From positions 23,524 through 87,523 of IMG/VR virus record IMGVR_UViG_3300035663_000004: a DNA stretch of 64,000 nucleotides; one strand, given 5' to 3'. The position numbers and the translations under genes were made by a program. How positions within the stretch are numbered: position 1 is the stretch's first letter; every line of letters begins with the position of its first letter. Origin of the DNA: a virus. Below are positions 5,698 to 24,466 of this stretch, in pieces. The notes beneath the pieces are model-generated. The model made no database searches and was not told the DNA's origin. It worked only from the letters and a program-made list of their open reading frames with translations.

Positions 5698-5700
5698 GTT

Positions 5701-5745
5701 TATAAAAATTTGCCCGCTCTCGGTTATGAGGGCGCGCGGGTGAAA
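5701..5745 (-). repeat. intergenic hairpin repeat, copy 1
   Basis: tataaaaatttgcccgctctcggttatgagggcgcgcgggtgaaa. Confidence 0.9.
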
Positions 5746-5752
5746 AGATAAA

Positions 5753-6196
5753 CTAAATTTCTCCGTTGTCGGCAAAGCTGTAAAAATCGCCGTCGGGGGC
5801 TAAAATAATATGATCTAACAGAATAATATCTAACAATTTCCCCGCGTCGGCTATCGCCTTAGTTAGTTTCCGGTCTGCATCGCTGGGCCGGAGTTCTCCG
5901 CTCGGGTGGTTGTGCGCAATAATTAGCGCGCTGGCAAGACCTTTGCAGGCGGCCCCAAAAAGTATTTTTAAATCTACAACTGTGCCGGCTATACCTCCGG
6001 CGGATAATTCTACAAGGCCTAAAACTTGGTTCCTTCTGTTTAGCAGGAGCGCTTTAAACTCCTCCTGCATTTCGATTTTTTTCGGGTTCCAGCTTTCGCG
6101 TAAAATTTCGTGCGCTGAATGCGACCCGGTAATTTTCGGCCGGTCTTTGGCTTTTACTTTGGCGCTATAAAAAAGGCTTATTTCCGCAACTTCCAT
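5753..6196 (-). CDS. radC: RadC-like JAB domain protein
   Basis: QEEFKALLLN, GGIAGTVVD, HNHPSG..PS.AD, LLDHII motifs. Confidence 0.92.
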   Translation of the reverse strand: MEVAEISLFYSAKVKAKDRPKITGSHSAHEILRESWNPKKIEMQEEFKALLLNRRNQVLGLVELSAGGIAGTVVDLKILFGAACKGLASALIIAHNHPSGELRPSDADRKLTKAIADAGKLLDIILLDHIILAPDGDFYSFADNGEI

Positions 6197-6200
6197 TTTT

Positions 6201-6245
6201 TATAAAAATTTGCCCGCTCTCGGTTATGAGGGCGGGCGGGTGAAA
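6201..6245 (-). repeat. intergenic hairpin repeat, copy 2
   Basis: tataaaaatttgcccgctctcggttatgagggcgggcgggtgaaa. Confidence 0.9.
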
Positions 6246-6248
6246 TAA

Positions 6249-6446
6249 TTATTTTTCTGCTGGTTTAAAAAGCGCGTGCGCTGCAAATTTGTTACCGATA
6301 AAGTCTTCTATATTAAAAAAGGCAATTTTTCCGGATTTGTTGCGCTTATCGTATTGTTTTACCTTCCATCCTTTGCGGGTTCTCTGTAAAAGTTCTACTT
6401 TTATGTCCGCGTAAAAAACGTGCTGCCAAACTTGCCCTACTTCCAT
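6249..6446 (-). CDS. hypothetical early protein
   Basis: 65-aa ORF bracketed by repeat copies 2 and 3. Confidence 0.65.
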   Translation of the reverse strand: MEVGQVWQHVFYADIKVELLQRTRKGWKVKQYDKRNKSGKIAFFNIEDFIGNKFAAHALFKPAEK

Positions 6447-6450
6447 GTTT

Positions 6451-6493
6451 TAAAATTTTGCCCGCTCTCGGTTATGAGGGCGGGCGGGTGAAA
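6451..6493 (-). repeat. intergenic hairpin repeat, copy 3
   Basis: taaaattttgcccgctctcggttatgagggcgggcgggtgaaa. Confidence 0.9.
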
Positions 6494-6496
6494 AAA

Positions 6497-8626: not shown

Positions 8627-8654
8627 GGTATTTGTTTTTAAAGTTTAAAAAAAA

Positions 8655-8855
8655 TTATATACCGTCTTCGCTTGCCATTATTCCGATAATAGCGCCAACA
8701 AGCGCAAACGCTGCATGGTAAAGCGTCCAAAGTACCCACAAAAGAATGTTTAACCTTTCGGGGCAGTAAGCGCTTCCGGCTGTTGCTGCGGCCAAAAATC
8801 CAGCGCCAACAAGCAAAGAAAAAACAATACTTAACACAATAATCAAATAACGCAT
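8655..8855 (-). CDS. small two-TM membrane protein
   Basis: Two hydrophobic segments. Confidence 0.6.
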   Translation of the reverse strand: MRYLIIVLSIVFSLLVGAGFLAAATAGSAYCPERLNILLWVLWTLYHAAFALVGAIIGIMASEDGI

Positions 8856-8884
8856 AATTTTAATATTTTAAATTGAAAAAATTT

Positions 8885-8958
8885 AGCCTGCCTCGTCAGG
8901 TGCGGGGGGCAAGTTCCGCACTACGCCGCGGGGTCGCGGCGTTTCGGCTTATCGGGCT
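8885..8958 (-). ncRNA. type II hammerhead self-cleaving ribozyme
   Basis: Minus strand AGCCCGAUAA GCC GAAA CGCCGCG ACCC CGCGGCG UA^ GUGCGG AACUUGCCCC CCGCAC CUGACGA GGC AGGCU: complete CUGAnGA/GAAA core, GUA triplet, three closed stems. Confidence 0.93.
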
Positions 8959-9077
8959 ATCCGAGTCCCGCAGCCTTCGCCGACTTTGCCGATGCCGTGG
9001 GAAGTTGCGCAGGATTGCAGGCAGATGGCACCGAAAATAAGCGCGAAAACAAAAGTAACAAAAGTAGATTTTTTCAT
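8949..9077 (-). CDS. 42-aa predicted lipoprotein (not in ORF track)
   Basis: MKKSTFVTFVFALIFGAICLQS-CATSHGIGKVGEGCGTRIAR; lipobox LQSC; first gene after promoter. Confidence 0.7.
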   Translation of the reverse strand: MKKSTFVTFVFALIFGAICLQSCATSHGIGKVGEGCGTRIAR

Positions 9078-9117
9078 GGCGTAAAAATAAATTTAACTGT
9101 TAAATAAAATGATAGCA

Positions 9118-9150
9118 CAAAGATAAGGGCGCTTTTTGCATCTGTCAAGT
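9118..9150 (-). promoter_or_regulatory. Bacteroidota sigmaA promoter driving the early operon
   Basis: TATCTTTG (9118-9125, minus) with TTGACA upstream. Confidence 0.7.
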
Positions 9151-9160
9151 ATTTTTTCCC

Positions 9161-9179
9161 TGTTAACATTTCATTAACA
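9161..9179. promoter_or_regulatory. TGTTAA-N7-TTAACA operator-like site, copy 2
   Basis: TGTTAACATTTCATTAACA. Confidence 0.6.
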
Positions 9180-9657
9180 AATAGGAATATAGTAATAATA
9201 GGAACGCGCGCGCGCGTATGTGTGTGCGGGCTGCGCTGTCCTTCTCCCTACCTTTGCCCCTACCTTTCTCCTTACCTGAATTACGGGCAGCGCGTGGAGT
9301 ATTGCGCGCGCTGGTCGCGTTCGCTGCGCCGGTGCCGTCCGTCTGTGCGCGCGTCTGCTGCTGCTGCTATCTTTTGGCCTACTCTTTTCCCTTGTTTCTT
9401 TTTGCGCGGTTATTTAATGCGCTGGGCTGCAATACATTACGCGCGTTTGTTGAATGTATGCGTATTAATGCAAGTTTGTTTTGCGCCTCCATTTAAGCGA
9501 TTCCGGCCGAGCTTGCGCACGAATCGCGCGCGCCGGATATATAGGAAACGCGCGCCCGGGGTGGTTTGCGATTTCGATTTCGGAACGCCGCCGACCGCCC
9601 CACCACCTATACATCAACCGGCAGCGTGTATCCTAATTAAAAAAAACAAGAAAAAAA

Positions 9658-9689
9658 TTTGCTATCAATAATAATCGCCTGTATCTTTG
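9658..9689 (+). promoter_or_regulatory. Bacteroidota promoter for the rightward operon
   Basis: TTTG at 9658 and TATCTTTG at 9682-9689. Confidence 0.7.
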
Positions 9690-9718
9690 CCACACATTTT
9701 TTAACTAAAAACAAAACT

Positions 9719-9829
9719 ATGCAGCAACAACAACGCTATCGAACTCCAATCCTGCCATGGATTCTACTGCTCACTTCCGCCTTGGCTTTGGCCTGTTTCT
9801 TTGTCGAGGCAAAATCGTTAACAATCTAA
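9719..9829 (+). CDS. 36-aa hydrophobic peptide
   Basis: MQQQQRYRTPILPWILLLTSALALACFFVEAKSLTI, first ORF after promoter. Confidence 0.45.
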   Translation: MQQQQRYRTPILPWILLLTSALALACFFVEAKSLTI

Positions 9830-9842
9830 AAAACAATCGACA

Positions 9843-23348: not shown

Positions 23349-24466
23349 TGGCGAACAAAAAAATTTCCGAACTTGAACCCGGCCAACAGGTAGTTGCGGA
23401 CACGCAGTTACCCGGTTCACTGGGCGCGCAGACGTTCAAGTACACGGCTGACCAACTGGCTGCCTACGTTCAATCTAAGGACACGGCGGGCGATATTGAC
23501 GGGCCGCTGACCGGTGCCGAAGTAGTCGGCATTCGCGGGCGCTCGGTATCTGCGACGGAGCCAACGAACGGGCAGATATTGCAATGGAACGGTACGGCAT
23601 GGATCCCGGTCGCTGCGCCTGCCGCTGCGTTCACGCCGGTGGTATACGAATATAGCAACCCCGTTACCAACGAACTGCTTACAATCCCGACCGGCGCAAC
23701 GCTCATAGATATTATTTGCATCGGCGCTGGCGCTGGCGGCGGTTCCGGGCGCCGGGGCGCTGCGGGGACGGTTCGCTGTGGCGGAGGCGGTGGCGGTTCC
23801 GGTACTTTTTCTACCATCACGGTACGCGCGGGCGATATTGACGGGCCGCTAAAAGTTACGGTCGGCGCTGGAGGGAGCGGTGGTACAGCCCGTACAGTGG
23901 ACAGTACAGACGGCGCGAACGGTAGCCCTGGCACGTCTTCGCAGGTTACGTCGAACACGAACGCGATATTGTGTTTTGCGCTCCGAGGCGGAGCGGGAAT
24001 AGGGGGTACCACATCAAGTGGCCCTGGCGGTGCTGCTGGTACGTCTGGCGACTTTCAAGGCAGCGCCGGCAATTCGGCGTCAACAAGCGGCGGAGCGGGG
24101 CAGGACGCAGGCGCTGCTTCGTCGAGAGGCCCGTCGGGTGGCGGCGCTGGTGGCGGTATTACATCCGGCAACGCCGCATCGGACGGTAGCAGCGGGCAGT
24201 CGGTGGTTCACGGGCAAATCTTGGTCGTGAACCGGGGCACGGTCGCAAACCCAAACGCGTCCGGGGGGTATTCGCCGTTACAGGGGCAAACAACTGGCGG
24301 CGGCGGCGGCGGCGGTGGAGCGTCCAGCCTAACCGGCGCTGGAGGACTTGGCGGTAACGGCGTACGCGGCGGCGGTGGCGGTGGTGGTGGTGCGAGTGTG
24401 AACGGAAACAACTCCGGCGCGGGCGGCAACGGCGGCAATGGTTACGTGCGTATAATCTTTTTGTAA
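23348..24466 (+). CDS. glycine-rich virion fibre/structural protein
   Basis: MANKKISEL N-terminus; GQILQWNGTAW; IGAGAGGGSG...GGNGGNGYVRI Gly-rich domain. Confidence 0.8.
   Translation: MANKKISELEPGQQVVADTQLPGSLGAQTFKYTADQLAAYVQSKDTAGDIDGPLTGAEVVGIRGRSVSATEPTNGQILQWNGTAWIPVAAPAAAFTPVVYEYSNPVTNELLTIPTGATLIDIICIGAGAGGGSGRRGAAGTVRCGGGGGGSGTFSTITVRAGDIDGPLKVTVGAGGSGGTARTVDSTDGANGSPGTSSQVTSNTNAILCFALRGGAGIGGTTSSGPGGAAGTSGDFQGSAGNSASTSGGAGQDAGAASSRGPSGGGAGGGITSGNAASDGSSGQSVVHGQILVVNRGTVANPNASGGYSPLQGQTTGGGGGGGGASSLTGAGGLGGNGVRGGGGGGGGASVNGNNSGAGGNGGNGYVRIIFL

Follow-up and report, generated by a model that had tools for sequence, protein, structure and literature searches.

The locus examined here raises the question of whether a phage transcript cuts itself directly behind its first gene. 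It lies in a stretch of 64,000 nucleotides (hereafter, the window), which is part of an 87.5-kb IMG/VR virus record (IMGVR_UViG_3300035663_000004, positions 23,524 to 87,523) estimated to be 89% complete. The source is an uncultured lake-water phage, and DNA that is nearly identical has turned up in many metagenomes from lake water and fresh water; the sequencing runs listed as containing it include no RNA run. A sequence-only reading of the window had placed a type II hammerhead ribozyme on the minus strand, right after a short lipoprotein gene, and had suggested that self-cleavage separates the message of this gene from those of about nine early genes downstream. We followed up this proposal by examining the structure of the element, its Rfam score, its relatives in metagenomes, its surroundings in the operon, and its resemblance to other viral hammerheads.

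Architecture of the element

Read directly on the minus strand, positions 8948-8890 contain all invariant hammerhead core nucleotides and three helices in type II topology (Table 1). The order in the RNA is stem II 5' strand, GAAA, hairpin III, the cut, hairpin I, CUGANGA, and stem II 3' strand. [quoted passage not shown] Stem II begins at the core with the G10.1-C11.1 pair (G8892-C8946). In stem III, A15.1 (8942) pairs with U16.1 (8923), and the strands 8941-8935 and 8930-8924 form the remaining pairs; together with the A-U pair, these 7 bp make up the 8 bp described earlier. A17, at 8922, completes the cleavage triplet GUA, and the cut predicted by the sequence-only reading between 8922 and 8921 agrees with hammerhead numbering. 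The loop of stem I has 10 nt (AACUUGCCCC, 8915-8906), and the tail that follows the stem II 3' strand is AGGCUAAAUUUUUU.

The elements and coordinates of the sequence-only reading, namely the stems, loops, core and triplet, were all correct, as was its remark that the 5' arm meets the stop codon of the lipoprotein gene: the TAA lies immediately 5' of stem II. The minimum free energy (MFE) fold of positions 8960-8880 (81 nt) is the hammerhead three-way junction, as is that of the corresponding RNA of a relative, L032, which is described below.

Table 1 Features at the head of the minus-strand operon, in transcript order (positions in the window).
Feature	Positions	Strand	Details
Promoter-like site, TTGACA, 17 nt, TATCTT (predicted)	9120..9148	minus	10/12 matches; almost identical in L032
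42-aa ORF, signal peptide and ...QS/C lipobox-like site	8949..9077	minus	stop TAA 8951-8949
UAGCC within coding sequence, possible 5' arm of outer stem II extension	8955..8959	minus	MFE fold
Full-length Rfam Hammerhead_II (RF02276) match, model positions 1-66	8882..8949	minus	36.2 bits
Stem II 5' strand GCC, positions 11.3-11.1	8946..8948	minus	abuts stop codon; partner GGC 8892-8890
Core G12 A13 A14	8943..8945	minus	direct reading and Rfam alignment
Stem III hairpin	8923..8942	minus	A15.1-U16.1 and 7 G-C-rich pairs; loop ACCC 8934-8931
Predicted scissile bond A17 (8922) / G1.1 (8921)	8921..8922	minus	hammerhead numbering on sequence
Stem I hairpin	8900..8921	minus	6 bp, GUGCGG 8921-8916 / CCGCAC 8905-8900
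Core CUGACGA (C3-A9)	8893..8899	minus	N7 = C in window, U in L032
Stem II 3' strand GGC, positions 10.1-10.3	8890..8892	minus	sequence and MFE fold
3' tail AGGCUA	8884..8889	minus	partner: loop I GCC 8910-8908 or UAGCC 8959-8955
66-aa ORF, two hydrophobic segments	8655..8855	minus	next gene; AUG 37 nt after A9; A/U-rich leader

Rfam score and chance expectation

The sequence-only reading had named a search with the Rfam Hammerhead_II model as a check, and the outcome was divided. The alignment runs from end to end of the model with low E-values, while its 36.2 bits stay 0.8 under the gathering score of 37. The E-value was 5.4e-6 in a 301-nt search and 3.7e-7 for the 87.5-kb virus record; when the whole window was compared with all 4227 Rfam families, the element was the top match (E = 0.0012). 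An Rfam scan at gathering thresholds reported nothing anywhere in the window. The whole-window E-value scan revealed no second ribozyme, and the RF02276 scan of the 87.5-kb record revealed no further hammerhead, leaving one copy only. We also applied a descriptor of our own, composed of the core strings, a stem II of at least 3 bp, and stems I and III of at least 4 bp. It matched a single site in the window on both strands and had no match in 300 dinucleotide-preserving shuffles.

The same model missed other viral copies. Among 16 other viral loci with the core pattern, nine were uncalled at the gathering threshold (L003, L004, L007, L009, L013-L017); most of these have clean helices, and several have 5-bp pseudoknots. 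The ribozyme of L032 was likewise uncalled. Since clean viral hammerheads and the L032 copy also fall under the threshold, the RF02276 threshold is conservative and the 0.8-bit shortfall carries little weight. The sub-threshold score does mean that standard Rfam annotation overlooks this ribozyme, and without sub-threshold annotation the first operon would pass for one plain polycistronic unit.

The tail GGC-CGUCAG is shared by a subgroup of the viral type II hammerheads (L003, L007, L014, L016, L027, and L029), most copies of which have a matching UGACG in loop I. The four members that were scanned (L003, L007, L014, and L016) are below the gathering threshold. The RF02276 model appears to be biased toward tails starting with A.

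Conservation in relatives

About 260 nt downstream of the ribozyme, the phage encodes a 137-aa protein with homologues at 82-100% identity. A metagenome scan for the locus yielded two loci, L031 and L032, and the comparison that follows is with one variant, L032. Its 137-aa protein is 90% identical to that of the window. The promoter is the same and the ribozyme is present, the lipoprotein gene has diverged, and the 66-aa gene is missing; the 137-aa gene comes directly after the ribozyme. In L031, whose 137-aa protein is 99% identical, an unrelated ORF takes the place of the lipoprotein gene and the ribozyme.

Across the ribozyme (8948-8885), the window and L032 differ at 2 of 64 positions. 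One difference is a C to U at N7, the sole core position free to vary; the other is an A to U at position 10.4 (8889), through which L032 gains a fourth stem II pair with the stop-codon A. The stem I and stem III hairpins are identical, and conservation is no less strict in the loops and junction strands than in the stems. Immediately upstream, in contrast, nine of the third positions of the last 15 codons differ (nine synonymous changes and no non-synonymous one), and so do 41 of the 126 positions of the whole lipoprotein coding sequence (Fisher p = 1e-6 for third positions against the ribozyme and 8e-7 for the whole coding sequence against it). Judged from these alignments, the contrast between ribozyme and codons argues for constraint on the RNA, loops included. 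The near-identity could stem partly from recent recombination or exchange: the locus is otherwise mosaic, yet the promoter region, with 11 differences in 123 positions, is well conserved too. Between the window and L032, the single relative, the stems are identical and hence give no covariation.

Three lake metagenome contigs have a ribozyme identical to the window copy and add no variation. Pattern searches of viral and genome contigs recovered no further copies of this lineage or of the lipoprotein C-terminus, and a reference phage genome collection held no similar DNA. The closest viral contig, L002, stops inside the chaperonin gene, short of the ribozyme locus. In viral contigs, the 137-aa protein had no match beyond a spurious one of 12 residues.

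Cassette exchange at the head of the operon

In a contig from one sequencing run (X11), positions 8639-9161 of the window are replaced by 344 other letters, and the same replacement is found in L031 (275-874). The block that is replaced comprises the promoter core, the lipoprotein gene, the ribozyme, and the 66-aa gene, and the replacement (about 344 nt) has its own TATCTTTG box and a different ORF. Since L032 keeps both the lipoprotein gene and the ribozyme and L031 is without both, the two behave, judging by this joint presence and absence, as one exchangeable cassette. The 66-aa ORF, which is absent in L032, looks like a second mini-cassette, inserted or deleted independently. A 503-nt contig from run X4 joins 9162-9200 to 8988-9017 through 412 other letters. 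This junction suggests a further variant, in which the promoter and the N-terminal part of the lipoprotein were replaced and the conserved C-terminal coding part was kept.

The lipoprotein itself (8952-9077 on the minus strand; about 3777-3905 in L032) shows a similar division. The signal peptides differ strongly between the phages, but L032 has the same QS/C site and the same C-terminal GIGKVGEGCGTRIAR, with nine nucleotide changes, all of them synonymous. Maturation would leave a lipopeptide of 20 residues. A 12-nt tandem repeat (unit GGTAGGGAGAAA, minus strand; 9242-9277) in the divergent intergenic region has about three copies in the window and L031 and about seven in L032.

Layout of the operon

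The ribozyme sits at the head of a run of minus-strand ORFs, with a plus-strand chaperonin operon diverging from it across an intergenic region at about 9080-9840. The promoter-like site overlaps TATCTTTG (9125-9118), a TAnnTTTG-type box. The 42-aa ORF matches no Pfam or PHROG family, and its signal peptide and lipobox-like site indicate that the product is probably a small lipoprotein. The sequence-only reading counted about nine downstream genes, and this figure has to be corrected: the ORF list has about twelve minus-strand ORFs after the ribozyme. Its label of an early operon is a plausible assumption. Pfam and PHROGs gave no function for the lipoprotein, the 66-aa ORF, and most of the operon, the exception being a RadC-like JAB domain protein at 5753-6196. 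In the leader of the 66-aa gene (8856-8884, the stretch read), we saw no promoter motif; the gene therefore appears to share the upstream transcript and to need read-through.

Three near-identical stable hairpins lie further along the minus strand (6447-6495, 6200-6250, and 5700-5750), with folding energies of about -15 to -18 kcal/mol and z-scores of -3 to -6. Each occupies the space from a stop codon to the AUG that comes after it and is followed by AAAUUUUU, like the ribozyme tail. Together they bracket the radC-like gene and a 65-aa ORF. They match no Rfam family.

Tertiary contact

In most type II hammerheads, a pseudoknot of at least four pairs links loop I with the nucleotides just after stem II and braces stems I and II, and shortening it lowers the rate 20- to over 100-fold at 0.5 mM Mg2+ (PMC3088659). 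The best contiguous match between loop I and tail in the window copy is 3 pairs (GCC 8910-8908 with GGC 8888-8886), and since 55% of shuffled tails match or beat it, it is no better than chance. In the other viral copies that we collected, 5-bp pseudoknots are plain. Two other pairings are available to the window copy. One is a bulged 5-bp pseudoknot, GGC-U-AA / UUGCC. The other is an outer helix between UAGCC (8959-8955) and GGCUA (8888-8884), which the MFE folds of the window and of L032 both include; L032 loses one pair through a synonymous change (GCC to GCG) and retains a 4-bp version. The extension of stem II by AGCC/GGCU in the sequence-only reading thus holds for the window, where both strands (8958-8955 and 8888-8885) are present and paired in the MFE fold, and is weakened by the pair lost in L032. 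It is possible that the bulged pseudoknot or the outer extension of stem II, both of them modelled pairings, could replace the usual pseudoknot.

Two further pairings of the tail were rejected. A 6-bp pseudoknot (GGCAGG / CUUGCC) could form only at the expense of stem II, and the A-to-U change in L032 breaks it. Masking of the core by the tail through a CCUG/CAGG hairpin (8900-8897 / 8890-8887) is unsupported, and this hairpin, too, is broken in L032.

Because of its unusually weak pseudoknot, this copy is well suited to testing how far a natural type II hammerhead needs tertiary bracing.

Alternative explanations

The alternative that survives best is a hammerhead-shaped element that cuts slowly or never and acts as a structured intercistronic spacer. 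Its two stable hairpins would shield mRNA ends or prevent pairing of the A/U-rich leader that precedes the next gene, and the three operon hairpins would do likewise. This explanation draws on the weak pseudoknot, no better than chance, and on the fact that the same operon has plain hairpins in the same slot, in the order stop codon, hairpin, AAAUUUUU, and AUG; the ribozyme tail reads GGCUAAAUUUUUU, like these hairpin cassettes. A spacer, however, would not need all eleven invariant core nucleotides, nor would it account for a sole core change in L032 that falls at N7, the one free position, or for loops and junction strands conserved as strictly as stems. We therefore consider a non-cleaving spacer unlikely.

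Far less probable is a terminator or attenuator, in which G+C-rich hairpins followed by a U run would stop or lower transcription after the lipoprotein gene and the likeness to a hammerhead would be incidental. A U6 run (8881-8876) does follow the element and is kept in L032, and the small CCUG/CAGG hairpin mentioned above lies just before it in the window. This hairpin, however, is the one broken in L032 by the A-to-U change at 8889, and the strong hairpins are at least 20 nt away from the U run. A terminator scan found no terminator-like site within or after the ribozyme. Termination here would also conflict with the 66-aa gene, which appears to depend on read-through, given that no promoter motif was seen in its leader (8856-8884, the sole part read), and the other cassettes are also followed by A/U-rich leaders. 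A functionless chance resemblance is the least credible of all: it could appeal to the sub-threshold score and to sub-threshold RF02276 matches in 6 of 14 control genomes, but it is opposed by the empty shuffles, by the low E-value even over the whole window and all Rfam families, by strong conservation beside fast-changing synonymous sites, and by a genomic context that is canonical for type II hammerheads.

On the basis of its core, helices, and topology, its near-threshold Rfam match, its conservation in L032, and its typical phage context, we conclude, as the sequence-only reading had proposed, that the element at 8948-8890 on the minus strand is in all likelihood a genuine type II hammerhead in a phage polycistronic transcript, with cleavage predicted. 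Our confidence in efficient cleavage is good rather than very high, mainly because the tertiary contact is weak.

Stop-codon placement among viral type II hammerheads

The window copy has the orientation of the genes around it, and G12 follows the stop codon at a distance of 3 nt. Many viral copies share this placement. In 20 of 26 viral loci with the same core flanks, an upstream same-strand ORF ends at most 5 nt away, compared with 8% of random positions, and in Rfam-called copies on other contigs, model position 1 usually falls on the final base of the stop codon. An independent set was assembled with a search pattern that left out the 5' flank beyond C11.1, giving 127 descriptor-validated copies at 80 loci. 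A stop codon ended 1-8 nt before G12 in 81 of the 123 other viral copies with an upstream ORF (random positions, 3%); the distance from stop to G12 had its mode at 2-3 nt, and the next start codon was typically 20-35 nt after A9. The window copy sits in the middle of this pattern, and its stop placement is the norm of the family.

Genome compaction alone could have caused this habit, and control by terminating ribosomes is possible. The founding paper on type II hammerheads does not mention stop codons (PMC3088659).

Several of the other viral contigs contain hammerhead arrays. Eight Rfam-called copies occur within about 6 kb of L008 (6900-13250), and three type II hammerheads each are found in L005 (1700-2850) and L010 (6800-10550). 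In L006 (1586-5800), a hammerhead, a pistol ribozyme, and a manA RNA lie within 4 kb.

Predicted consequences of cleavage

Hammerhead cleavage leaves a 2',3'-cyclic phosphate and a 5'-OH. In the mechanism that we propose, transcription would start at the promoter-like site and cross the lipoprotein gene; once the stem II 3' strand has been made, the three-way junction would fold and the RNA would cut itself between A8922 and G8921. The upstream product would be a short message of about 190 nt in which the lipoprotein ORF is intact, stop codon included; the stem III hairpin would form its 3' end, with a 2',3'-cyclic phosphate. By sequence, the complete ORF and stop are followed by 27 nt up to the predicted cut. 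The base of the stem I hairpin is the exact start of the downstream product, which would have a 5'-OH there and contain the 66-aa gene as well as about a dozen more ORFs. The two messages may then differ in stability or translation rate, in a direction that would depend on the RNases of the host. Such effects have been suggested for phage and bacterial hammerheads (PMC3088659, PMC6765202). The cut would then probably serve to make the first gene independent of the rest of the operon in stability and translation.

Translation of the first gene would bear on this step. By the size of its footprint, a ribosome that pauses at the stop codon would cover the stem II 5' strand, the GAAA, and the start of stem III, and folding would have to await its release. 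As the stop codon abuts stem II, a terminating ribosome would have to keep the ribozyme transiently unfolded. A more ambitious proposal goes further: because the stop sits at the edge of stem II and a possible outer arm lies in the last codons, ribosomes on the lipoprotein ORF would time its folding. The promoter, lipoprotein gene, and ribozyme could then form a translation-gated switch that travels with the gene as an exchangeable cassette. We rate this proposal as improbable, slightly more so than the non-cleaving spacer. If it were true, the translation level of the first gene would govern cleavage and, with it, what becomes of the dozen genes downstream.

The role of phage hammerheads is largely elusive (PMC6765202). 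With its single ribozyme, its tiny and conserved lipoprotein message, and natural variants with and without the cassette, this operon offers a simple system in which to test the effect of cleavage on expression.

Comparison with known systems

The class of type II hammerheads has thousands of members, and many phages carry hammerhead arrays. The class and its placement between phage genes have been known since 2011 (PMC3088659), and the present copy is an ordinary new example. Its points of interest are modest: it falls under the Rfam threshold, is without a convincing pseudoknot, and belongs to a cassette that is present or absent in otherwise near-identical phages.

Relative to the type II hammerheads of RF02276 (Perreault et al. 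2011, PMC3088659), the catalytic core is identical. The window copy shares with them the looped stems I and III, the open, short stem II (3 bp), and the same-strand intergenic phage site, with a stop codon flush with stem II and a start codon a few tens of nucleotides downstream. It differs in its score, 0.8 bit under the cut-off, in its large loop I (10 nt), and in a pseudoknot of 3 bp where 4-6 bp are usual. In addition, its possible outer extension of stem II enters the upstream coding sequence, and it is single rather than clustered.

Type II hammerheads between prophage genes have been proposed to process long transcripts (PMC3088659), and cyPhyRNA-seq showed in vivo cleavage of three predicted type II hammerheads of Desulfovibrio vulgaris that lie near phage-like genes (PMC8782182). 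The role proposed here is the same as for the prophage clusters (Perreault et al. 2011, Figure 3) and for D. vulgaris, namely the cutting of a transcript into messages of gene or operon length. In our phage, however, the first gene alone is set apart, and the other junctions have plain hairpins or nothing. The D. vulgaris hammerheads are active in vivo; for the window copy, activity is predicted from the sequence.

Among bacterial self-cleaving ribozymes, glmS is the only one with an understood role (PMC6765202). The resemblance lies in the self-cleavage of an mRNA that alters the fate of the downstream message through a 5'-OH end, which for the window copy is a prediction. The glmS fold is unrelated, depends on a metabolite, and resides in a 5' UTR, whereas the window copy, with no sign of a ligand, lies between the first two genes of its operon.
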